From: a virus
Lineage: Duplodnaviria; Caudoviricetes
Length of the DNA stretch: 62,467 nucleotides
Direction: 5' to 3' (one strand)
IMG/VR virus record: IMGVR_UViG_3300030012_003842
Span: 1-62,467 of that record
Positions 47,656-57,001 of the stretch are shown here, one piece after another. Under the pieces are notes generated by a model. The model had not been told where the DNA came from and did not search any database. It saw nothing but the letters and a program-made list of their open reading frames with translations. How positions within the stretch are numbered: the stretch's first letter is position 1; every line of letters begins with the position of its first letter. A program made the translations under genes and the position numbers.

Positions 47656-47823
47656 TTATTTAATTTTAATATTACGCTCCAAAATATTAACAGCATTTAG
47701 AATGGTTGTTTCCCTTTCCTCTTTGCTCATGTAGATAGTTGGAACTTCTATCCACAATTTTTTATCATCAGTTTTATACCTCCGTTTAAACGACCTATAG
47801 AACTTCTGTATATATGTAATCAT
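47656..47823 (-). CDS. Hypothetical protein
   Basis: Probable start at MITYIQ. Confidence 0.45.
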   Translation of the reverse strand: MITYIQKFYRSFKRRYKTDDKKLWIEVPTIYMSKEERETTILNAVNILERNIKIK

Positions 47824-48595
47824 TGATGTCGCAAGGCGCATCACTACTAAAAAATTTCTCATAAACTTTAATTGCTTTTTTAACATTGTCTTCCCCTTTG
47901 TCTATAAACTCTTGACTCGTAGGAAAAACTTTTAATAATCCATCGTTCTTACCTATAGCTACAAAGACAAACGGTTTACCAAACAACTGTTGGTATATGT
48001 AGGCTTGTGAATTGTAGCAATAAGCAGAACAAGAATGTCTAAACTTGAATATATCAGAGCTGGTTTTCAAATCCACGACAGCTCCGTCTGGATAATCCAT
48101 AATAAAAGTCTGACCATCGTGCTCAATCTCCAGCTCAAATGGTTCATGAACCAATACATCACACTTACCTTTGAACATGTGACCATGTATTTCTTTTATG
48201 TTAGGTACTTCATACTCAGTCTTATCACCATACACCAAATCAAACACGGTCCAGTTGCTTAACATCTTATCTACCAAGTTATCTAAAGCGTCCTTTTCTT
48301 TTGTTAAAAGCACATCGTATTGGTCAAGCTGTTGCTCAATCTTATACTGTTTAAACGCATTGGTAGTTCTTGATGAGGCATTGAATACTGGTATCGTGTC
48401 TATCTTTTCTGGCTCCAGAATTTTTGTATGAAAGTATCTTCCTTGTAATAAAGGTAAAGTCTTTTCTGATTTATTAAAGTCAGTAGGCTTGTAAAGTAAT
48501 TGTCTGATATTAGAAGCAGATAAAAACTGCTTACCAAACTTACCATAATACTCTGAATCCTTTTGTAGTTTCTTAAGTATCTTACTTCTTTCCAT
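47795..48595 (-). CDS. PD-(D/E)XK exonuclease (exonuclease VIII/DUF3799-like)
   Basis: LSASNI, GRYFH, KGKCD, VDLKTS, YNSQAYIY. Confidence 0.82.
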   Translation of the reverse strand: MERSKILKKLQKDSEYYGKFGKQFLSASNIRQLLYKPTDFNKSEKTLPLLQGRYFHTKILEPEKIDTIPVFNASSRTTNAFKQYKIEQQLDQYDVLLTKEKDALDNLVDKMLSNWTVFDLVYGDKTEYEVPNIKEIHGHMFKGKCDVLVHEPFELEIEHDGQTFIMDYPDGAVVDLKTSSDIFKFRHSCSAYCYNSQAYIYQQLFGKPFVFVAIGKNDGLLKVFPTSQEFIDKGEDNVKKAIKVYEKFFSSDAPCDINDYIYTEVL

Positions 48596-49166
48596 TAATA
48601 GCTTTCTTGAGTTTAGTTTTAATGGCAGGAGTTACCTTATACTTTGTTGACAGCTGTGCCACAATGTAATCCAAACCTTTATCTTTATTCTTAGCTACGT
48701 ACATCAAGACCTTGTCCCACTTGTCTGTAGTTAATTCAAAGGTTTGCTCCTTTTGAACAGGTTTATCTTTCGCCTCGTTTAAACGACCTGTGTCTTCCCC
48801 TATCCACAACGATAAACCAAGTCCGTGCATTGCAATAGCTTTAGCAGTAGCTCTTTGTATTGCATTGTTTACATCAAATGAAGTTATCTTTGTTAAAGGT
48901 ATAGAACGATTAGCGTTATCTAACACTGGCAGATAATCAATGTGTTCAATATCATTAATAACTATTCCAACTTTTACATTAGCAAACTTACCGTCTGTGA
49001 AATAAGGCATGCCCATTTCATTTTCATAAACGATTCTGTTTGCAGTTGGATACTCTTGCTTAACGTAATGCCAAGCCCAAGCCCAAGACAAGTAGTCATA
49101 CCTGCCTTTCTTTTCAACCTTATCGGCTACTGAGATTGCACTCAGATTTTTATAAACATTTTCCAT
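48582..49166 (-). CDS. Sak-like (DUF1071) single-strand annealing protein
   Basis: YLSWAWAW, LPVLD, AIAMHGLGLSLWIGED. Confidence 0.85.
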   Translation of the reverse strand: MENVYKNLSAISVADKVEKKGRYDYLSWAWAWHYVKQEYPTANRIVYENEMGMPYFTDGKFANVKVGIVINDIEHIDYLPVLDNANRSIPLTKITSFDVNNAIQRATAKAIAMHGLGLSLWIGEDTGRLNEAKDKPVQKEQTFELTTDKWDKVLMYVAKNKDKGLDYIVAQLSTKYKVTPAIKTKLKKAINGKK

Positions 49167-49167
49167 A

Positions 49168-49560
49168 TTATAATTTATTAAGTTCTGTTTTTAAATTTGT
49201 ATACTTATTAAGTAACGTTTCCCTGCGGTTCTTTAAGTTCTGAATATGCTTATCGTTCTTACGAGTATTCAATTCAGTCTTAATTCTTGACTCAATTATA
49301 GACAGCTTATGCAAGCAGTTGCTCATGCTAACTTGCGTACAACCCTTACGCCAGCCGTCTCTATAAAAGAAATCATACTCTTCATCGGAACACTCTTTAA
49401 AATAGTCACCGCCTTTTCCCATGTTGAGTATTTGTATACCGTCATCAAACTGTTGTATCTTCACACCCCTACCAATAACGCTTACACCTTTCGGTAAAAC
49501 ATTCTTAATACTTTTCGGGTCTTCCAAAGCTTGAATCATGATATCTTTGCGTTTAAACAT
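49168..49560 (-). CDS. Hypothetical protein
   Basis: 130-aa ORF within the operon. Confidence 0.65.
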   Translation of the reverse strand: MFKRKDIMIQALEDPKSIKNVLPKGVSVIGRGVKIQQFDDGIQILNMGKGGDYFKECSDEEYDFFYRDGWRKGCTQVSMSNCLHKLSIIESRIKTELNTRKNDKHIQNLKNRRETLLNKYTNLKTELNKL

Positions 49561-49561
49561 G

Positions 49562-49867
49562 CTATACTTTTAAATTCTGCAGCTCGATTAACTCAACGAT
49601 AGCCTTGTAGTCTTCATCTTCTTCAACCATTTTCTTAGCTTTCTTATAGCCATGAATGATAGTGGAATGAAAAACATCGCAGCCATGCTCTGCCATATAC
49701 CTTTGTATATAAGAAACTCTAATAGGTCTTTCCATACATAAGTAATAAAGCATTTGTCTGGCGTCAACCAAGTCTCTTCGTTTATCTTTATTAAACATCT
49801 CATCTAATTCAAGATGAAATTGTTTAGCTACTGCGTTTGCATACGCTTCAAATATATTACCTTTCAT
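49562..49867 (-). CDS. Second DnaA C-terminal-like helix-turn-helix protein
   Basis: KRRDLVDARQMLYYLC...HSTIIHGYKK. Confidence 0.75.
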   Translation of the reverse strand: MKGNIFEAYANAVAKQFHLELDEMFNKDKRRDLVDARQMLYYLCMERPIRVSYIQRYMAEHGCDVFHSTIIHGYKKAKKMVEEDEDYKAIVELIELQNLKV

Positions 49868-50190
49868 TATTTAAATTCTTTTAATTTTTGATTCTTTCCT
49901 TCAATCAAGATATCCTTGATTTTATTTTCTTCTTTCTTTACTTGCACCTTATATAATATAAGATAACCAATTAAGTCTTGAACCGTATCTTCAGTGAGGT
50001 CGTTTAAACCCTTCTGCTTTATCCTGCTAAGCTTGTCATCAATACGTGCAAGCAATCCTTCTTTTGGAGATAGCTTACTAAAAATTTGTGGTGGATTATT
50101 AGCCGTGTCACCATAGGCTTTGTTCTTTTCAAGTAGCAGAAGGACAACCTCCTTACCAACCTGTTTAATTAAGTCTTCAGTTTTAACCAT
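49867..50190 (-). CDS. Nucleotide modification associated domain 1-like (DUF1599-like) protein
   Basis: KNKAYGD, RIDDKLSRI, EDTVQDLIGYLIL. Confidence 0.75.
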   Translation of the reverse strand: MVKTEDLIKQVGKEVVLLLLEKNKAYGDTANNPPQIFSKLSPKEGLLARIDDKLSRIKQKGLNDLTEDTVQDLIGYLILYKVQVKKEENKIKDILIEGKNQKLKEFK

Positions 50191-50332
50191 AAATAATTTT
50201 TAATATTTCATATAATAAAAAAGCGAAGAAGCAAACAGCACAAAGACCAATAAGAAATTCCATGAATCTATATTGTCCTTCACGCTGTTTAAACGACCTA
50301 CCTTGTCTATATCTTTTATCTTCTTCTGTCAT
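50183..50332 (-). CDS. Small membrane protein (49 aa)
   Basis: Manually translated MTEEDKRYRQGRSFKQ... plus a hydrophobic helix; coupled at both ends. Confidence 0.6.
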   Translation of the reverse strand: MTEEDKRYRQGRSFKQREGQYRFMEFLIGLCAVCFFAFLLYEILKIIYG

Positions 50333-50502
50333 ATAAACAAGGGTGGTTCTTCATCGTTCTTACCCCAAGGAATAGGAGGAAGCTCTGGCTTAGGCTTAGG
50401 CTTCTCTTCTTTATCTTCTTCCTTGTCGATAGGAAACAAACTGTTAAGAAATTTATCAAACACTTTGTCCTGATATTTAAATTCGTTATTTAATTTCGCC
50501 AT
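50329..50502 (-). CDS. Small Pro-rich hypothetical protein (57 aa)
   Basis: Manually translated MAKLNNEFKYQDKVFDKFLN...; directly downstream of a promoter. Confidence 0.6.
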   Translation of the reverse strand: MAKLNNEFKYQDKVFDKFLNSLFPIDKEEDKEEKPKPKPELPPIPWGKNDEEPPLFI

Positions 50503-50523
50503 TTAATTTAATTTTAATTGTTG

Positions 50524-50555
50524 CAAATTTATACAATCTATTTATATTTTCCAAA
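50524..50555 (-). promoter_or_regulatory. Bacteroidota sigma-A promoter for the replication operon
   Basis: TTTG-N20-TAAATTTG on the minus strand. Confidence 0.7.
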
Positions 50556-50570
50556 CAATTTGCAAACAAA

Positions 50571-50804
50571 TTAATACCAAGGTTTATTCTCAATCGCATA
50601 CTCTCTAACGTCCGTGTGTACAGAATCATCTACATAATCCCAATAGAAATCCGTGATATCCTGACCGTTAAGCCATACTCCTTTTATAGTTAAGTCGTCT
50701 TCAGGGGGTTGATAGTAGTCACCATTATCCCAGTAATAAGAAAAGTCTATATGTAATGTATAGGTTTCTTCTTCTTTCACGTAGGTTCCTTGATACTTAC
50801 TCAT
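50571..50804 (-). CDS. Hypothetical early protein
   Basis: 77-aa acidic, aromatic ORF. Confidence 0.65.
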   Translation of the reverse strand: MSKYQGTYVKEEETYTLHIDFSYYWDNGDYYQPPEDDLTIKGVWLNGQDITDFYWDYVDDSVHTDVREYAIENKPWY

Positions 50805-51271
50805 AGTTGTAGTGGCTGTACGTTTAAACGATGTATAATCTCATGCTCTATCTCATCGTATTGTTTGTTAAAAAATTCTTGAGCGTCCTCAGTGTATTCC
50901 AAAGTGTCTGAATCATTATCTGCATAAGTCATGTGACCAAACTTCGCTTCGGTAACTCTGTTTGCAAGGTGACATATTACAGAAATAAAATCTGAATTGT
51001 CTACCACCCGCTCGTTTAAACGGACTTCAATATCATAGTCATCACGGAGCCCTGCAATAAGGTGAACCGTATACATGTTTTCGTGGACGTGGTCTAAGAG
51101 TTCTTGTATCTGACTTAAGTCATCAGAAGCTACCCAGCCTTTGCCCCACAGCATGTTAGCCACATTAGATAGTTCATTGTATCCAACAAAATGATACGTG
51201 CTCATGTATCGTTGGTCTAAGTCTATACTAATATAGTGTTCGCTTTTGTTTTTCATTTTTGCTTTTGCCAT
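50801..51271 (-). CDS. Hypothetical early protein
   Basis: 156-aa ORF with A-rich leader. Confidence 0.65.
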   Translation of the reverse strand: MAKAKMKNKSEHYISIDLDQRYMSTYHFVGYNELSNVANMLWGKGWVASDDLSQIQELLDHVHENMYTVHLIAGLRDDYDIEVRLNERVVDNSDFISVICHLANRVTEAKFGHMTYADNDSDTLEYTEDAQEFFNKQYDEIEHEIIHRLNVQPLQL

Positions 51272-51282
51272 ATAATAAAGTT

Positions 51283-51588
51283 TTAAAGGTTATAAAAATA
51301 TTCTGTTTCGTCACGGTGTTTAAACGCAATCTCTTGTGCTTCAAGTCGTTGGTCTGGGTGGACGCAAATGAATTTGATTTTCATAAAACAATTTGATGAA
51401 TCACCCCACACACAACGGTACTTAATCTTTGCTTGTCTTAGTTTCTTGCAGAAGCTATCGACTTCACTCGTTGCAGTCTCATGCCATTGGTCTGTAAAGT
51501 TACAACCACCAACAGCATTGACTGGCTCCAACCATGAACGCCACCCGTCCAGTCTGAAGACTTTTGTTTTTGTAGTATTAATATGCAC
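51283..51588 (-). CDS. Hypothetical early protein
   Basis: ORF track extends to 51654; probable start is the in-frame GTG overlapping the upstream gene end. Confidence 0.5.
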   Translation of the reverse strand: MHINTTKTKVFRLDGWRSWLEPVNAVGGCNFTDQWHETATSEVDSFCKKLRQAKIKYRCVWGDSSNCFMKIKFICVHPDQRLEAQEIAFKHRDETEYFYNL

Positions 51589-51904
51589 TGGCTTGTCTTT
51601 TTTGATTATCCTCATAGCTACATGAAGACCAGAAACAGTCATCATGAAAGCCATTGGTTAAATTATGATAGTATCTCTTCAGCTTTTCATTCAGCTTGTT
51701 TAAACGGTCTATGCTTTTCCAGTCTGGAACATTGCAATCACCGTCAACTCTTCCCAGCAAACCACCACCAAGATAGTTTTGATATGCCGTCATCTTTCCA
51801 TTTGGGTAGCCCCACTTTTTTAAGTCTATCTCAATGCCGCCACCACGTGGGCTTACCTCTTTGCGGATTATAGACTGTTCTATTCTCTTTACTCTCATAG
51901 CCAT
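51578..51904 (-). CDS. Hypothetical early protein
   Basis: 108-aa ORF containing AYQNYLGGG. Confidence 0.65.
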   Translation of the reverse strand: MAMRVKRIEQSIIRKEVSPRGGGIEIDLKKWGYPNGKMTAYQNYLGGGLLGRVDGDCNVPDWKSIDRLNKLNEKLKRYYHNLTNGFHDDCFWSSCSYEDNQKRQASAY

Positions 51905-52206
51905 ACGTGTGCTGATTTGATTTTATTTGGGTGTACCTCCCTTTCAATTATCTCTGTGCTTACGCCTTGAACTGATGAGTCTTTAAGCTTATAGCATTTA
52001 GTTAGCTGAATAAACTCTACGATTTTGCCCTGACGTTTAGTCGAGCTTAGGTGTTCAATAGCTTCTTTTAAAGTATCAAAAGACTTAGTCTTTTTGTTTG
52101 GGTTCTGCCATGTGTTGGCATGGGTCAATGCTTTACCTTTCCCATTATGTATTTCATAATGGTCAACGTCTTCAATGATTGTCCCGTAAATAATATTCTG
52201 TTCCAT
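51895..52206 (-). CDS. Hypothetical early protein
   Basis: 103-aa ORF. Confidence 0.6.
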   Translation of the reverse strand: MEQNIIYGTIIEDVDHYEIHNGKGKALTHANTWQNPNKKTKSFDTLKEAIEHLSSTKRQGKIVEFIQLTKCYKLKDSSVQGVSTEIIEREVHPNKIKSAHVWL

Positions 52207-52262
52207 ACGAATTTGATTTAATTATGCGTGGCGTTTAAACGGGTGCCACACTTTACCCTTTT

Positions 52263-52372
52263 AGTAATGGGTGGGGGACTCGAACCCCCACTGAAGCCTA
52301 CTCACTATCGTTCGAGCAACTAATATTTCTATTAGAACCGCTGTACTAATCTCGTGAGGTCTTCAACCCACC
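52263..52372 (-). ncRNA. tRNA-like structured RNA (acceptor stem and T arm, no canonical D/anticodon arms)
   Basis: GGUGGGU/ACCCAUU acceptor-like stem, GGGGG-UUCGAGU-CCCCC T arm, inner stems UGAAG/CUUCA, CUCAC/GUGAG and CUAAUA-GAAA-UAUUAG. Confidence 0.65.
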
Positions 52373-52422
52373 AACGGACTGCACAAAATTCATACACAAA
52401 ACAACAGTCCGTTTAAACGTCT

Positions 52423-52710
52423 TTACAATCTATCCATGAAGTCTTGTGCTAACTCCATTGGATTTGTAACATCTTCAAGTGCCCAGAACTCGATGAACTT
52501 TTCAGCGTCTTCATACACGCCTTCAAATATTTGTTCATCGGTTCGCCAACGTTTACGCTGGCCTTCACTCATGGTTTTGACTTTACCATTTTCTAAAAAA
52601 TTAAATCGACTAAAGCTTGTCGCTCCGTAATTAAAGAACACGTCTGATATACTGAACGTTGGGCTCGTCTGTAATAATTTTGTTTTAGTTTCACTTAATT
52701 TTCCAAACAT
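52423..52710 (-). CDS. Hypothetical early protein
   Basis: Probable start MFGKL (52710) after an A-rich leader. Confidence 0.6.
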   Translation of the reverse strand: MFGKLSETKTKLLQTSPTFSISDVFFNYGATSFSRFNFLENGKVKTMSEGQRKRWRTDEQIFEGVYEDAEKFIEFWALEDVTNPMELAQDFMDRL

Positions 52711-52753
52711 AATTTTTAATTTTAAGATTCGTGTGCAATATACAAAATGTTTT

Positions 52754-52906
52754 TTAATTGTGCAAGTTTTGTACATTAAAATTTATTTTTATTTGCTCAC
52801 CTTGTTTAAACGCACGCGACTTTTTTTCTGCAATGAGCCTGTTTAAACGCCTTTGCTCTCTTGCCTTATAAACCGCGTGCATTATTTGTCTTTCAATTCT
52901 GTGCAT
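52754..52906 (-). CDS. Small basic hypothetical protein (50 aa)
   Basis: Manually translated MHRIERQIMHAVYKAREQRRLNRL...; TAATG coupling to the upstream gene. Confidence 0.5.
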   Translation of the reverse strand: MHRIERQIMHAVYKAREQRRLNRLIAEKKSRAFKQGEQIKINFNVQNLHN

Positions 52907-53151
52907 TAGTTACGTCTTACAGTGTAGTCTTCATTGATGAGATGAAATACATCATTCCATACTTCAGACGGAACGTCAGCTTCCTTCATACAATCGTCTA
53001 TCCCTGCAAACAATCCGTCAACTGCTTTATCGTCAATCCCTCTTTGTTCGACTTGTTCGTACCAGTGAAATGCTTGCTCCTCTGTACTCCATTCTTCGAA
53101 AGGAACGCCTGCTTCTTCTTCGGCTTGTAAAATGTGATTTGGTTTTTCCAT
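52906..53151 (-). CDS. Acidic hypothetical early protein
   Basis: 81 aa; starts 24 nt after the predicted cut of ribozyme A. Confidence 0.65.
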   Translation of the reverse strand: MEKPNHILQAEEEAGVPFEEWSTEEQAFHWYEQVEQRGIDDKAVDGLFAGIDDCMKEADVPSEVWNDVFHLINEDYTVRRN

Positions 53152-53170
53152 AATATAAATTTTAAATTAA

Positions 53171-53242
53171 TAACTCCTGCACCGCGTTTAAACGGTGCAA
53201 CGCTTTGAGCTTAGTGTTCTGTTTATAGTCGCTCAATCGACT
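53171..53242 (-). ncRNA. Pistol ribozyme A (variant)
   Basis: P1 AGUCG/CGACU, pseudoknot UUGAG/CUCAA, AAA linker, UAAG and GCG core, P3 UUGCACCG/CGGUGCAG, G-A at the scissile position, 3-bp P2 AAC/GUU. Confidence 0.72.
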
Positions 53243-53742
53243 TACTCATCGTCCCATTCATACTGGTTGTACTCACTGTATTCAACATCTTCCCAATCGC
53301 CCAGAGTTGTCTCTTTCTTTCTGCAGTTGTTTAAATCATTAAGTAAATCAATAAAATGACCGATAGCCATGGTGTAATTTACAATGCGTTTAAACGACCC
53401 CTCTTTCAGCATGTTCTCTGCCTCTTGCCACATATCATATTCACATTGATACAGTTCTGAAGGGTCGCCCCATTCTGAATCCGCGCTGTGTAGCCAATAG
53501 ATATCATTACCTTGAGCGTCTGACTCTCTATCAATTACAAGAGTGTCTGAATCAGTGTGATAACCGCTTGAACCAGCGTAATAATTATTGTAGAGACAAT
53601 AGTCATTCTCTCTATCGCCTAATATCTCCCATTGCCACGGGCCATCGTCTGTATCAGTTAATACTGCAACGTTTAAACTGCTACTGTCTTCACAGTTCCA
53701 ACCGTTTTTTGTTCCGTAAATTTTTAATTCTTTTATTCTCAT
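53242..53742 (-). CDS. Acidic hypothetical early protein
   Basis: 166 aa, Asp/Glu/Trp/Tyr-rich; stop codon abuts ribozyme A. Confidence 0.7.
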   Translation of the reverse strand: MRIKELKIYGTKNGWNCEDSSSLNVAVLTDTDDGPWQWEILGDRENDYCLYNNYYAGSSGYHTDSDTLVIDRESDAQGNDIYWLHSADSEWGDPSELYQCEYDMWQEAENMLKEGSFKRIVNYTMAIGHFIDLLNDLNNCRKKETTLGDWEDVEYSEYNQYEWDDE

Positions 53743-54305
53743 GAGTTTTGAATTTTAGTTAATCTCTCTAATTTGTCTGAGTCGTTTAAACGGTCCCAGT
53801 CTGAGGGTGGTTCCCAATTTGGAATCTTGCTCCTCATTGTAGCAAATACAATCCTTTCTTTATACTTGACCGCTTGAGCTGTATCCTCCTTTTTATCATT
53901 CATTAAATCCCCCATTAATAGGAAAGCTTTCATTGAATTTAATATAGGGTCTGGCTCACCTTCACCGCTTTTAATAGCAAGTTTTAAATCAATAAGGTCT
54001 TGACCAAAGAAACCGCCAAGCTCACAAGTTTTAAAGTAGTTGTGAAGCGTTAATTTTCTCGCATCGTTTAAACGCTTCCAGTCACTGAATACATGTTTTC
54101 TGACAAGCTTCTTGTGGTGCTCAATCTCTTCATCAACAACCCTCAGCATTGAGGTTTTGTATCTGTAATCCTCCCAAGTTCTGTTGTTCCAATGTACAGA
54201 CGCTTTGCCTATCTCAACGCCATTAAAAAGAAGAGTTGAATCATGGCTGAAGCCGTTACGCCTGTTACGGCTTTCGTTTTTAATTTCAAAGTTTTTAAAT
54301 TTCAT
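53739..54305 (-). CDS. Hypothetical early protein
   Basis: 188 aa with GFSH and WNNRTWE motifs; starts 24 nt after the ribozyme B cut. Confidence 0.7.
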   Translation of the reverse strand: MKFKNFEIKNESRNRRNGFSHDSTLLFNGVEIGKASVHWNNRTWEDYRYKTSMLRVVDEEIEHHKKLVRKHVFSDWKRLNDARKLTLHNYFKTCELGGFFGQDLIDLKLAIKSGEGEPDPILNSMKAFLLMGDLMNDKKEDTAQAVKYKERIVFATMRSKIPNWEPPSDWDRLNDSDKLERLTKIQNS

Positions 54306-54324
54306 ATAGTATAAATTTTAGTTA

Positions 54325-54393
54325 AACAACGGACAACGTTTAAACGCTGTCCCGCTTTGGGCCTAATGCTCTTTTTATTGTCGCCCAAACGAC
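54325..54393 (-). ncRNA. Pistol ribozyme B
   Basis: P1 GUCG/CGAC, pseudoknot UUUGGG/CCCAAA, P2 AGCA/UGUU, UAGG and GCG core, P3 GGACAGCG/CGUUGUCC, GU cleavage dinucleotide at 54330/54329. Confidence 0.88.
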
Positions 54394-54599
54394 TCTTTAA
54401 ATTCTTGCAACCATAACCAGCCTAACATGTACAATAGAAAGCCTTGAAAGGCTAACAGTAGACCGAACACAAGCAACGCAATAAGCCCGTCAATTTGTGT
54501 GGCTACATGGAACATCATTCGCAGTGCTGAAATCCCAACGAATAACGCACAAAGGCCAAGGATAATTGTTTGAATCTGTTTTGATATTTTATTTTCCAT
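54375..54599 (-). CDS. Small two-TM membrane protein
   Basis: Two hydrophobic helices; last codons overlap P1 of ribozyme B. Confidence 0.65.
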   Translation of the reverse strand: MENKISKQIQTIILGLCALFVGISALRMMFHVATQIDGLIALLVFGLLLAFQGFLLYMLGWLWLQEFKESFGRQ

Positions 54600-54625
54600 A
54601 TTATTAGTATTAAATTAAACTCCGT

Positions 54626-55135
54626 TTAAACGTCCTCCCTCCCAAACTCAGGGTTTGGCTTGTCACCGTCCAGCCCCGCGGTTAAAACTCCGTAAATCAC
54701 TTTGTCAAATAACTCGTTATAAATTGGCGTGTATTTGTCAAACTTTTCGTAATCCCCATAATGCAGGTAATCCGTCAAGAAATTTTCCAGCCTTTGGACT
54801 TCTCTGCCCGCGTCTGCATGCGCGTAAATGAAATTAATCATTCTTTTGTAGTAAGGCTTTATAAAAATTTCTGTGTCGCTTGTAGGGTTGCCGTAATCGT
54901 CACAATCCCATGAATCGTAATCCTGAACGTTACAATTTCCGTTATTATAAAAATCATAACTTAGACGGCCAATCGCTCTTATTAATTCACCGTGTACAGT
55001 TGGCGCGTCACCGCTTGAAGGTACCAGCTTTTTATTTAGCTTTTTGTACTCTTCAGAATAGGCACCAGTACCAGCCCAATAGCTACAGCCTTTAGGCGTG
55101 GTTTTCATTTGTGGTTTTTCAATAGTATTTTTCAT
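54626..55135 (-). CDS. Hypothetical early protein
   Basis: LVPSSG...GELIRAIGRLSYDFYNNGN; start moved to ATG 55135, 24 nt after the ribozyme C cut. Confidence 0.7.
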   Translation of the reverse strand: MKNTIEKPQMKTTPKGCSYWAGTGAYSEEYKKLNKKLVPSSGDAPTVHGELIRAIGRLSYDFYNNGNCNVQDYDSWDCDDYGNPTSDTEIFIKPYYKRMINFIYAHADAGREVQRLENFLTDYLHYGDYEKFDKYTPIYNELFDKVIYGVLTAGLDGDKPNPEFGREDV

Positions 55136-55154
55136 ATAGTATAAATTTTGATTA

Positions 55155-55224
55155 AACAACCTGAGCCGTTTAAACGGCTCAACGCTTAGGGCTTAATGTA
55201 CTATTTCAAGTCGCCCTAACGACC
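55155..55224 (-). ncRNA. Pistol ribozyme C
   Basis: GGUCG-UUAGGG-CGACU-UGAAAUAG-UACA-UUAAG-CCCUAA-GCG-UUGAGCCG(UUUAAA)CGGCUCAG-GU-UGUU; core nearly identical to the env25 pistol as I recall it. Confidence 0.92.
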
Positions 55225-55321
55225 CCAAACCTTTGACGAATTGTCGCCATTCTTTGCGCGTTAGTTTAGCGCGCTTGCGTGCTTTCGTTTGTCTGTTTGG
55301 CTTTGAGATTTTTAATATCAT
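55193..55321 (-). CDS. Small basic protein (42 aa) ending inside ribozyme C
   Basis: Manually translated MILKISKPNRQTKARKRAKLTRKEWRQFVKGLGSLGRLEIVH; shares the AAAATTTATAC leader. Confidence 0.55.
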   Translation of the reverse strand: MILKISKPNRQTKARKRAKLTRKEWRQFVKGLGSLGRLEIVH

Positions 55322-55342
55322 AGTGTATAAATTTTAATTAAT

Positions 55343-55366
55343 AAAAGGGGCGCGTTTAAACGCCCC
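55343..55366 (-). terminator. Terminator-like hairpin containing GTTTAAAC
   Basis: GGGGCG-TTTAAACG-CGCCCC-TTTT after the first early gene. Confidence 0.55.
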
Positions 55367-55373
55367 GTGATTT

Positions 55374-56003
55374 TTACTCATCGCGTTCATTGTCCATGTG
55401 ACCACCGCAACCCGTAGGGCATTCAATGTGGTCCTCAAGCTTGTTGATATTCATTCTTGACGTCCTGAAACTGAACCCGCAACAATTACAGCTGACCTTC
55501 AAATTTCTGACCCCGTCTTTACGTCCGCCCGTCATAACCTTAGCATGAGGGAACAAGCCTAACGGCTTTATAACGTTAGCTTTTAGATAATCTTCAAGCC
55601 ATTCTGTTTCAGTTGTCGCGGTCATTTTACCCGTCAACCCTACAGCTGTGGCGCAACGTTTAAACGGTGCCCCGTGACCGCTTGCGCAATCATCAACGGC
55701 ATGTACTAACTCATGAACAAGAACGCCTAAAATTCGAAGCGTACCCTTCAATGTTGAGCCGTCTAAATATGGGGTGATATTTACTTGATTAATTCCGCTA
55801 TCGCAAAGACCTGTTGGAAAGCATTGCCCCAATACCTTGACGCCTTGCCCGTATTTGGTTCTGTTTCCTCTGGTTGCCCACGATACAGATAATTGAACTT
55901 TTGGGACTTTGTATCCCTTCTGTTTAAACAGCCCCTTTCTTAGTATATCCGTAGCGTTTTCTAAGTAGGTCTCTCTGTTAGATTTTGACTTTTTATGTCT
56001 CAT
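55374..56003 (-). CDS. SprT-like zinc metalloprotease with C-terminal Zn-ribbon
   Basis: VLVHELVH, GHGAPFK, CNCCG...CPTGCG. Confidence 0.75.
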   Translation of the reverse strand: MRHKKSKSNRETYLENATDILRKGLFKQKGYKVPKVQLSVSWATRGNRTKYGQGVKVLGQCFPTGLCDSGINQVNITPYLDGSTLKGTLRILGVLVHELVHAVDDCASGHGAPFKRCATAVGLTGKMTATTETEWLEDYLKANVIKPLGLFPHAKVMTGGRKDGVRNLKVSCNCCGFSFRTSRMNINKLEDHIECPTGCGGHMDNERDE

Positions 56004-56032
56004 AATTGTATAAATTTTGTGTTAAACTTGTA

Positions 56033-56062
56033 CAAATATAGTAAATATTTCGTTTATACAAA
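56033..56062 (-). promoter_or_regulatory. Early Bacteroidota sigma-A promoter
   Basis: TTTG-N18-TATATTTG on the minus strand, ~30 nt before ATG 56003. Confidence 0.7.
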
Positions 56063-56069
56063 CTATTTA

Positions 56070-56480
56070 TTTAAAAAGATTTGTAAAAATATTATCATGC
56101 ACCTGCTGATTTGGTTGTAACTTGCTGACTTTCAGTGACTTAACCTGTTGATAACTTTATCTTTTTTTTTATGATTTGTTTTGTCTTTTGATTTATCGGG
56201 CGGGCATAACGGGGGAAATCCTTTTATCTCTTCAATCAAAAAACGTCAAACCTTCCCCCGCCCCTCAGCCCGTTTAAACGCTTAGGCCCTAACAACGTTT
56301 AAACAATGCGCGCGCTTTTGCGGTCAACCTCGAGCCCGTTTAAACGCACAGCAAAAAGCTAAAAAAATCGAGAAAAAATTTTTAAAATTTGTTTTGACCG
56401 ACAAAATATTTTGACTTTTTGTTAGGGGGGTGGCAAACGTATAACGGGGTATTACCCTGAACTCCCAGATATCTAATAAA
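56070..56480. other. Long non-coding divergence region, candidate genome end/packaging or origin region
   Basis: Strand switch, A/T tracts interleaved with GC blocks, edge of the GTTTAAAC gradient. Confidence 0.45.
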
Positions 56481-56487
56481 AATTTAT

Positions 56488-56495
56488 TATCTTTG
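56488..56495 (+). promoter_or_regulatory. Bacteroidota -7 promoter element
   Basis: TATCTTTG 16 nt before ATG 56512. Confidence 0.55.
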
Positions 56496-56511
56496 ATAAA
56501 AATTAAAAGCT

Positions 56512-56709
56512 ATGAGCATAAACAATTACGTAGACGGATTATACATTAAGGATGGTAGGTTAATAAACGACAGGCCTTCATCTGAATCAGGAATAGCAAG
56601 AGCAGCTTCTATTAAGAGGTCTGTAAAAAACGATAGAAAGATTAATCAAATTGCTGAAGGTATTCAACTTGCAGAAGATAAGAAGAACTTCAGACAGTTA
56701 GAATTTTAA
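56512..56709 (+). CDS. Hypothetical protein
   Basis: 65 aa with its own promoter element and terminator. Confidence 0.65.
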   Translation: MSINNYVDGLYIKDGRLINDRPSSESGIARAASIKRSVKNDRKINQIAEGIQLAEDKKNFRQLEF

Positions 56710-56748
56710 AAAACAAATTTCCCTATTTGTTCTGTTTTGATTTGAGTG

Positions 56749-56782
56749 AAAGAGAGTTTCTTAATTGAAACTCTTTTTTTTT
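56749..56782 (+). terminator. Intrinsic terminator
   Basis: AAGAGAGTTTC/GAAACTCTTTT stem followed by a T run. Confidence 0.7.
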
Positions 56783-56945
56783 GTCATACCTATGACAATA
56801 ATATGACAATATAGTTTTATGTAACTTCTTGATTTTCAATTACTTATTTATTTTATGACGACTATGACGACTTAAATATAAAATTAATATATATAAAATA
56901 TAATATAAAAAGAAAAATATATATATGTAAATTTGCAGAAAATAA

Positions 56946-56976
56946 TTTGTCATGTTCGTCACAATTTGTATATTTG
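56946..56976 (+). promoter_or_regulatory. Consensus Bacteroidota promoter for groEL
   Basis: TTTG-N19-TATATTTG. Confidence 0.75.
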
Positions 56977-57001
56977 AAAAGTTCTAATTAAATTAAATAA
57001 A

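Follow-up and report, generated by a model that had tools for sequence, protein, structure and literature searches.

Three pistol self-cleaving ribozymes, here called A, B and C, lie at gene junctions on the minus strand of the virus record IMGVR_UViG_3300030012_003842. The whole of this record, 62,467 bases long, was analysed and is referred to below as the window. The three elements are genuine pistol ribozymes by identity and fold. On the strength of their setting in the genome, we consider it probable that all three are functional and lie on one long early mRNA, which they would cut without protein into messages of one or two genes. An earlier note on this DNA, made from the letters alone, had proposed both the ribozymes and their role. 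The pistol identity has been borne out, while the protein-free cutting of an early mRNA into few-gene units is the best-supported reading and stays an interpretation.

The identity of the elements was established by a scan of the window against Rfam (cmscan, gathering thresholds). This returned exactly three matches, all to RF02679 Pistol and all on the minus strand. Each covers the full model, with a score 25 bits over the curated cut-off of 34.5 bits (Table 1). No other known ribozyme family was matched by the Rfam scan in the whole window, even at the permissive level of E ≤ 5. The coordinates given in the earlier note agree with these matches (60–62 bits), except that the middle copy is one base shorter there at its 5′ end (54393 vs 54394); a search of the reverse strand with the Rfam pistol model, which it had put forward as a check, thus gives three significant matches. 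In the cmscan alignments, all three copies match the positions written as capitals in the Rfam consensus, namely UCG, GCGA, AAA, UA-GC, AGCG and the junction G. The two nucleotides of the P3-P2 junction are GU in A, GU in B and GA in C, which places the predicted scissile bonds at 55160/55159 (between G and U), 54330/54329 (G and U) and 53176/53175 (G and A), the same positions as had been predicted in the earlier note.

The pseudoknot is formed by UUAGGG/CCCUAA in one copy, UUUGGG/CCCAAA in another and UUGAG/CUCAA in the third, and the P3 stems are all paired and have unlike sequences; both features had been noticed earlier and both hold. The alignment can be extended to 11 copies by adding eight from four related phages described below (G080, G081, G082 and G088), a weak copy in a fifth relative, G086, being left out. 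Across these 11 clade copies all 88 of the P3 pairs are canonical, with two to four pair types at each position, and the pseudoknot has six pairs, 64/66 canonical, with two pair types at five of the six positions. P1 has 52 canonical pairs out of 55 and P2 37 out of 44. The AAA linker, A-G, UA-G and GCG are invariant. The pistol fold is therefore maintained by compensatory change across the 11 copies. In the three window copies the P3 loops carry GUUUAAAC, and a palindrome, GTTTAAAC, forms the P3 loops of these copies and of the five copies of G080 and G081.

The placement of the elements at gene junctions was confirmed against the list of open reading frames (ORFs). Every ribozyme in the window has the stop codon of the preceding ORF at its start or within it. 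The 42-aa ORF that ends inside ribozyme A is conserved in G080 (93% amino acid identity) and in G081 (76%), where the overlap with the ribozyme is kept too. On the downstream side, the three predicted 3′ products each begin with a leader of exactly 24 nt, followed directly by the ATGs at 55135, 54305 and 53151. The leaders are A/U-rich, and the motif AAAATTTATAYTAT is common to all three products. The first 39 nt of the products have predicted folding energies of 0 (A), −1.4 (B) and −1.1 (C) kcal/mol, and are thus predicted to be unstructured. A close variant of the same leader motif is found ahead of the 42-aa ORF and ahead of the promoter-proximal gene. The first cistrons after ribozymes A and B are referred to here as genes X and Y. 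PHROGs and Pfam gave nothing useful for nine of the ten neighbouring proteins, and in the protein atlas gene X had no usable match and gene Y only matches below 0.9 to viral clusters.

The ribozymes lie in what appears to be the early region of the phage. The virus record that makes up the window is complete or nearly so (99% estimated completeness, 34.8% G+C). Its plus strand carries structural and packaging genes from 0.2 to 42 kb, including the large terminase, the portal and a virion protein. A block of minus-strand genes runs from 56003 down to about 42.4 kb; it begins with small ORFs of no assigned function, beyond which lie the genes for a Sak-like annealing protein, an exonuclease, a primase/helicase-like protein and a helicase. 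On the plus strand, GroEL is encoded from 57002 onwards. The terminase matches 87 GenBank phage records, comprising phages of Flavobacterium (68), Cellulophaga (15), Tenacibaculum (2) and Maribacter (1) and one uncultured phage (75% identity). Because these terminase relatives infect Flavobacterium, Cellulophaga, Tenacibaculum and Maribacter, the host is probably a member of the Flavobacteriia.

A promoter-like site is found 29 nt before the first gene of the minus-strand block, and is labelled as such by its likeness to the Bacteroidota −33/−7 consensus. A mirror-image site lies at 56946–56976, ahead of GroEL. The minus strand has no TAnnTTTG site between 56033 and 52711, and the promoter-like site at 56062–56033 together with this absence fits one transcript through all three ribozymes. 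It is the position of the site that suggests a promoter here, and the block is called early and polycistronic on the basis of its gene content, this one promoter-like site and the absence of TAnnTTTG from 56033 to 52711. A search for RNA sequencing runs that contain this phage listed none; one run, of unspecified kind, contained 0.24 of the sequence words. The 30 window proteins scanned included no RNA ligase or kinase. A consensus scan flagged P3 followed by GUUGUUU as a possible intrinsic terminator. This was rejected as the main explanation, since the U-run is not continuous and the stem belongs to the ribozyme itself.

With one promoter-like site upstream and none between the ribozymes, the best reading is the protein-free processing of a polycistronic early mRNA. 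Transcription would begin on the minus strand near 56040, at a promoter of host type, and each ribozyme would fold once transcribed and cut after the G of the two-nucleotide P3-P2 junction. The upstream piece would then end as a compact ribozyme fold bearing a 2′,3′-cyclic phosphate, and the downstream piece would carry a 5′-hydroxyl and the unstructured A/U-rich leader of 24 nt straight before the start codon. Cutting of the operon would give one- or two-gene messages with near-identical leaders, and would make the expression of each cassette independent of the sequence upstream of it. We infer, in other words, cleavage in vivo of a single transcript, with a gain in translation or stability.

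The next evidence comes from the relatives of this phage. A hundred related viral records were retrieved through GroEL and the 209-aa protein, and pistols are present in five of them. G080 has three copies (GroEL 97% identical to that of the window), G081 has two (92%), G082 has one (91%), G086 has one weak copy of 39 bits (75%) and G088 has two (72%). The distance from the predicted cut to the ATG is 23–25 nt in five of the six copies of G080, G081 and G082, and 24 and 34 nt in G088. A blastn search of GenBank phages with window positions 52000–57000 gave no match, and MW202828.1, the closest of the named relatives, lacks pistols. By descriptor search, the partial records of three cultured or named relatives, NC_055854.1 (14000–46000), NC_062744.1 (40000–72979) and MW202828.1 (1–50000), contained neither pistols nor hammerhead-shaped or hairpin elements.

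At least 27 other relatives have, at equivalent junctions, either a hammerhead-shaped element or a conserved hairpin, placed 18–42 nt before start codons. The hammerhead descriptor consisted of CUGAnGA, stem II, GAAA, stem III, UH, and a stem I of at least four pairs. It identified 45 type-I hammerhead-shaped elements in 28 of 135 relatives' loci (1.75 Mb), with 0 matches in each of five block-shuffled sets. Stem I has six pairs in 44 of the 45 elements. Of the elements, 44 are in loci whose orientation is given by GroEL, and every one of these is on the early strand; in 45 out of 45 cases an ORF begins with ATG 18–42 nt past the predicted cut. Up to five elements are found in one locus (L198, followed by L199 with four). 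RNAalifold, run on those of the unique sequences that are no longer than 63 nt (29 of 35), gave a three-stem fold with an invariant core, in which 15 of 17 pairs show compensatory changes.

The scores of these elements against Rfam are 31.2, 25.9 and 20.2 bits for RF00163 Hammerhead_1 (gathering threshold 34, not reached) and 33, 26.5 and 18 bits for RF03152 RAGATH-1-hammerhead (56.3, not reached), at places that the descriptor also found. Because the scores are below threshold, the elements are named here as hammerhead-shaped and not as members of the Rfam families. An Rfam scan of L195, L200 and L204 (61 kb) gave no ribozyme family at E ≤ 1, and nine relatives' loci scanned at the gathering threshold contained no ribozyme class except pistol. 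The two kinds of element can occur together: in G082 a pistol is followed about 590 nt downstream, on the same strand, by a hammerhead-shaped element.

Some of the hammerhead-shaped elements form a subtype with a sequence-conserved stem II, GUAAAGGUUUAAACACCUAC, which carries GUUUAAAC as do the P3 loops of the window pistols. In L195, L229 and L252 the 3′ product of this subtype starts with AUUGUUUAA, resembling the pistol product UUGUUUAA; in L194, L198 and L218 it starts otherwise.

The third junction element is a hairpin whose base, CCUC/GGGG, is invariant and whose upper stem covaries; after it come WUUU, three to four variable bases and GGUA. There are 27 unique instances, and an alignment of 21 of these gives nine pairs, five of them with compensatory changes. 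A search of Rfam with L204 6780–8300 gave no match to the hairpin at E ≤ 10. The hairpin stands ahead of orthologues whose counterparts elsewhere follow hammerhead-shaped or pistol elements. Five orthologue clusters have mixed upstream elements, four of them hammerhead-shaped/hairpin and one pistol/hairpin, although several of the loci in these clusters are near-identical contigs, so that the independent events are fewer than the rows. As read from the genomes, this interchangeability is the strongest indirect evidence suggesting selection on RNA processing at the junctions. The analysis thus establishes the identity, fold, position and leader length of the elements and, by comparison, their interchangeability with other junction elements.

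Pistols of other viruses provide a wider context. A degenerate pistol pattern was scanned over IMG/VR and gave at least 117 stretches, of which 80 were taken, and 79 records were then scanned whole with RF02679. Among the matches listed, to which all the figures given here for other viral pistols refer, 66 of the 79 records are above the cut-off, 59 of them with one copy, six with two and one with five. The genomic context was analysed for 58 pistols, 14 of 72 being left out (six short matches and eight near a locus end); also left out were G049 (a duplicate of G007), G059 (below the cut-off) and short matches in G009 and G053. A same-strand ORF stops between −10 and +35 nt from the ribozyme start in 40 of the 58, compared with 254 of 1160 random positions, and most of these pistols begin 0–8 nt past the stop codon. 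An ORF starts 10–50 nt after the cut in 23/58, compared with 310/1160. A place right behind a stop codon is therefore general for viral pistols.

The record with five copies, G065 (L122, 13516–15910), is an unrelated viral contig of 55% G+C in which the five pistols occupy 2.4 kb. Each of them directly follows a stop codon, and is itself followed by a conserved Shine-Dalgarno leader ending AAGGGAGAGAACATG and then an ATG.

These observations bear on an alternative in which selection acts mainly on the 3′ end of the upstream message: the cut would replace a terminator, the folded cyclic-phosphate end would protect the RNA, and the leader would be a by-product of packing. The upstream stops, found near the 5′ end of the ribozyme far more often than at random while downstream starts are far less constrained, speak for this, and so do the three upstream stops of the window, all of which are at or inside the ribozyme. 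Nearly the whole of a pistol ribozyme stays on the 5′ product, but since type-I hammerheads also leave most of the ribozyme there, this point fails to separate the two roles. It is the narrow distance from cut to ATG in the phage family (24 nt three times in the window and 18–42 nt for the 45 hammerhead-shaped elements) that stands against a role confined to the upstream end, and we consider such a role unlikely to be the main one. A 3′-end role and a leader role are in any case compatible, not exclusive.

A comparison of the window with two close relatives, G080 and G081, shows how the cassettes between the ribozymes change. Homology with G080 is collinear from 57000 to 55132, at 87.5% identity, and breaks off at the leader of ribozyme A. 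In the window, gene X comes after ribozyme A and gene Y after ribozyme B; in G080, gene X comes after the second ribozyme (73% identity) and gene Y after the first (76%). In G081, too, the homologue of gene Y comes after the first ribozyme. The cassettes of the window and of G080 have unrelated second ORFs. The ribozyme-plus-leader modules keep their positions, with identities of 87.5%, 94.7% and 87.2%. G081 has neither gene X nor one of the ribozymes. Since collinearity ends at leader A, and X and Y are swapped around fixed modules, the modules coincide with synteny breakpoints.

It could be argued from this that the units of ribozyme and leader act chiefly as joints for recombination, or are selfish repeats, and shuffle early cassettes between co-infecting phages, with RNA cleavage being incidental. 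The end of homology at leader A, the exchange of slots by X and Y at 73–76% while the modules stay at 87–95%, and the losses in G081 would all be expected; a Sak-like annealing protein and an exonuclease are among the gene products of the phage; and copy numbers among close relatives are 3, 2, 1, 1 and 2. The compensatory changes in every helix and in the pseudoknot, however, point to selection on the RNA fold and not on DNA homology, unrelated ribozyme classes occur at equivalent places, and the synteny comparison comprises two close relatives only. We regard this explanation as improbable, somewhat more so than a role at the upstream 3′ end.

A further possibility is that cleavage is conditional. 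Because the upstream ORFs end inside ribozymes A and B, translating ribosomes could unfold P1 and the pseudoknot, so that the cut, and with it downstream expression, would depend on whether ribosomes are finishing the 42- and 74-aa ORFs. The overlaps of 32 nt with A and 20 nt with B, the former conserved in G080 and G081, would fit such a mechanism. Ribozyme C and several of the copies in relatives merely adjoin the stop codon, however, and most pistols elsewhere begin 0–8 nt past it; the overlap may reflect only compact packing; and the one pistol for which the available text of PMC4604425 reports a rate is fast. Conditional cleavage is thus very unlikely as the explanation. That the elements are relics without activity, or match the model by chance, as the weak outermost P2 pair and the cleavage site between G and A in copy C might suggest, can be given hardly any weight, in view of scores 25 bits above the cut-off, helices kept by compensatory changes, a G and A at the cleavage site in 5/58 of the other viral pistols listed, and a junction described as variable in identity in the available text of PMC4604425.

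Protein-free processing of the early mRNA remains the reading that we prefer, and several observations have to be set against it. Pistols are missing from 95 of the 100 related records, and the weaker association with downstream starts elsewhere means that a fixed short leader is not a general property of pistols. Through the ORFs that run 32 and 20 nt into ribozymes A and B, ribosomes could undo P1 and the pseudoknot, as described above. The outermost P2 pair is canonical in 4 of the 11 clade copies and non-canonical in the other 7. The promoter-like pattern occurs eight times in the whole window, where 5.6 would be expected, and is thus not enriched. Finally, a G+C-rich terminator-like hairpin with a GUUUAAAC loop and a U-run (55366–55347) lies downstream of the promoter-like site and ahead of ribozyme A, 25 nt upstream of the ATG at 55321, and could halt much of the transcription.

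Several known systems are comparable. The early polycistronic mRNA of phage T7 is cut between genes by host RNase III at hairpins, which leaves a folded 3′ end upstream. T7 uses a host protein for this, whereas the window RNA would cut itself and so produce 5′-OH and cyclic-phosphate ends. RiboJ is a synthetic ribozyme insulator, and thus belongs to engineered constructs, whereas the window elements lie in a phage operon. The same difference of setting separates them from ribozymes of some eukaryotic RNA viruses, for which the available text of PMC13725137 reports that translation depends on self-cleavage upstream of an ORF; in both cases a cut just upstream of an ORF, within the 5′ UTR (untranslated region) of the RNA viruses, sets the 5′ end of the message and affects, or in the phage would affect, translation.

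The pistol class itself (RF02679) has been studied by Harris et al. (2015; PMC4604425), and the window elements share with it P1, P2, P3, the pseudoknot from the P1 loop to the P2-P3 junction, the nucleotides written as capitals in the Rfam consensus, the two-nucleotide cleavage junction and the association with phages. According to the available text of that paper, pistols are often near phage genes, the class has ten highly conserved nucleotides, the P3-P2 junction is strictly conserved in length and variable in identity, and one representative cleaves at more than 10 per min at physiological Mg2+. The window differs from other pistols in having three copies within 2.1 kb of one operon, in P3 loops that all carry GUUUAAAC, and in its host lineage, which is probably Flavobacteriia; the same text stresses Firmicutes, with one construct from A. 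putredinis.

The closest precedent in function is that of prophage hammerheads (Perreault et al., 2011; PMC3088659). In the available text, clustered hammerheads flank single genes or short blocks of varying identity, as the pistols do here; processing of long phage transcripts into mRNAs the length of a gene or an operon is proposed, and transcripts of about 2 kb were cut in vitro. They belong to another ribozyme class, and the window adds a fixed 24-nt leader, the overlap with upstream stops, and relatives with hammerhead-shaped elements. A 2019 review repeats the idea of phage transcript processing and, as far as its available text goes, calls the purpose undefined (PMC6765202). The PeSL cassettes of T4-type phages (PMC2839356, PMC4122927) are likewise described, in the available text, as repeated regulatory motifs between genes of variable early regions, coinciding with places where small genes have been inserted, deleted or replaced; PeSLs are promoter-terminator motifs, whereas the window elements are ribozymes.

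Since the pistol class and the proposed processing role are both already in print, the case of the window is not new in kind. Among the published titles and abstract openings found, none concerned pistol arrays in phage operons or the replacement of pistol by hammerhead at equivalent junctions, the original description of the class by Weinberg et al. (2015) and supplements lying outside this scope. What is added here is the presence of pistols in five of 100 relatives, the hammerhead-shaped and hairpin elements at equivalent junctions, and the synteny breaks at the modules.

Table 1 Features of the early region of the window and of related loci. aa, amino acids.
Feature	Position	Strand	Remarks
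Pistol ribozyme A	55155-55224	minus	RF02679, 60.9 bits, E 1.2e-08, model 1-68
Pistol ribozyme B	54325-54394	minus	RF02679, 61.7 bits, E 7.9e-09, model 1-68
Pistol ribozyme C	53171-53242	minus	RF02679, 59.9 bits, E 2.1e-08, model 1-68
Leader of predicted 3′ product, A	55136-55159	minus	24 nt, contains AAAATTTATACTAT; ATG 55135 next
Leader of predicted 3′ product, B	54306-54329	minus	24 nt; ATG 54305 next
Leader of predicted 3′ product, C	53152-53175	minus	24 nt; ATG 53151 next
42-aa ORF	55193-55321	minus	last 32 nt, including stop, inside ribozyme A
74-aa ORF	54375-54599	minus	last 20 nt, including stop, inside ribozyme B
166-aa ORF	53242-53742	minus	final base of stop codon is first base of ribozyme C
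Gene X	54626-55135	minus	169 aa, no known family; first cistron after ribozyme A
Gene Y	53739-54305	minus	188 aa, no known family; first cistron after ribozyme B
81-aa ORF	52906-53151	minus	first cistron after ribozyme C
First gene of minus-strand block	55374-56003	minus	209 aa, phrog_6361 (PHROGs match)
Promoter-like site	56033-56062	minus	TTTG-N18-TATATTTG; 29 nt before ATG 56003
Terminator-like hairpin	55347-55366	minus	GGGGCG-UUUAAA-CGCGCCCC, then UUUU; directly after 209-aa gene
Hammerhead-shaped arrays	L198 3307-6173; L199 2715-4529; L200 7644-8516		early gene junctions; also in 25 further loci
Subtype with stem II GUAAAGGUUUAAACACCUAC	L194 413-475; L195 7413-7475; L198 6102-6173; L218 571-668; L229 5879-5941; L252 6797-6859		
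Junction hairpin, examples	L204 6875-6920, 7607-7652, 8168-8213; L200 6013-6057, 6988-7036		

Some other features of the window are worth recording. The palindrome GTTTAAAC occurs in 46 copies where about three would be expected (none of 100 shuffles reached this number). Of these, 28 are in the early block, and they are densest at 47784–56345. Within coding sequence it is found in both of the permitted reading frames, and its usual flanks are CGTTTAAACG. Among 81 relatives' loci it is enriched only in G080 and G081. Another palindrome, CAGCTG, has 74 copies compared with 10 expected, and 63 of the 74 fall at 1–42.3 kb, in the late structural block. The early and late regions thus carry different over-represented palindromes.

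On the minus strand, a gap of 217 nt between early ORFs (52225–52420) contains a tRNA-like piece, with a T-arm GGGGGUUCGAGUCCCCC at 52289–52273 and acceptor-like pairing around it. ARAGORN found no tRNA at 52.2–52.4 kb with default settings, and only degenerate models at an 80% threshold; the piece could be an RNA-processing signal or a decayed tRNA. Also on the minus strand, a G+C-rich patch at 56230–56360 has three copies of GTTTAAAC (56272, 56297 and 56338), within the 1-kb divergent intergenic region that separates the early block from GroEL. It might be an origin, a region that binds a regulator, or a small RNA. The hairpin at 55366–55347 may be a terminator inside the operon or else a fourth junction element.

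On the basis of the comparisons with relatives, we tentatively suggest a more general arrangement, although at present we would not call it likely. In the early operons of GroEL-encoding Flavobacteriia phages of about 60 kb, cassettes may be parted by interchangeable punctuation modules (pistol, type-I hammerhead or hairpin) some 20–40 nt before the start codon. Such modules would both set a standard leader and serve as homology for the swapping of cassettes, and the hairpin would then be either a new self-cleaving motif or a site for a host RNase.

The phage and its relatives provide a comparative system for the role of pistol ribozymes. Its useful features are the fixed distance from cut to start codon, the two ribozyme classes and the hairpin that substitute for one another before orthologues, and the cassettes that swap at the modules. 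The family-wide interchangeability of the junction elements, together with the swapping of cassettes, is the part most worth following up.

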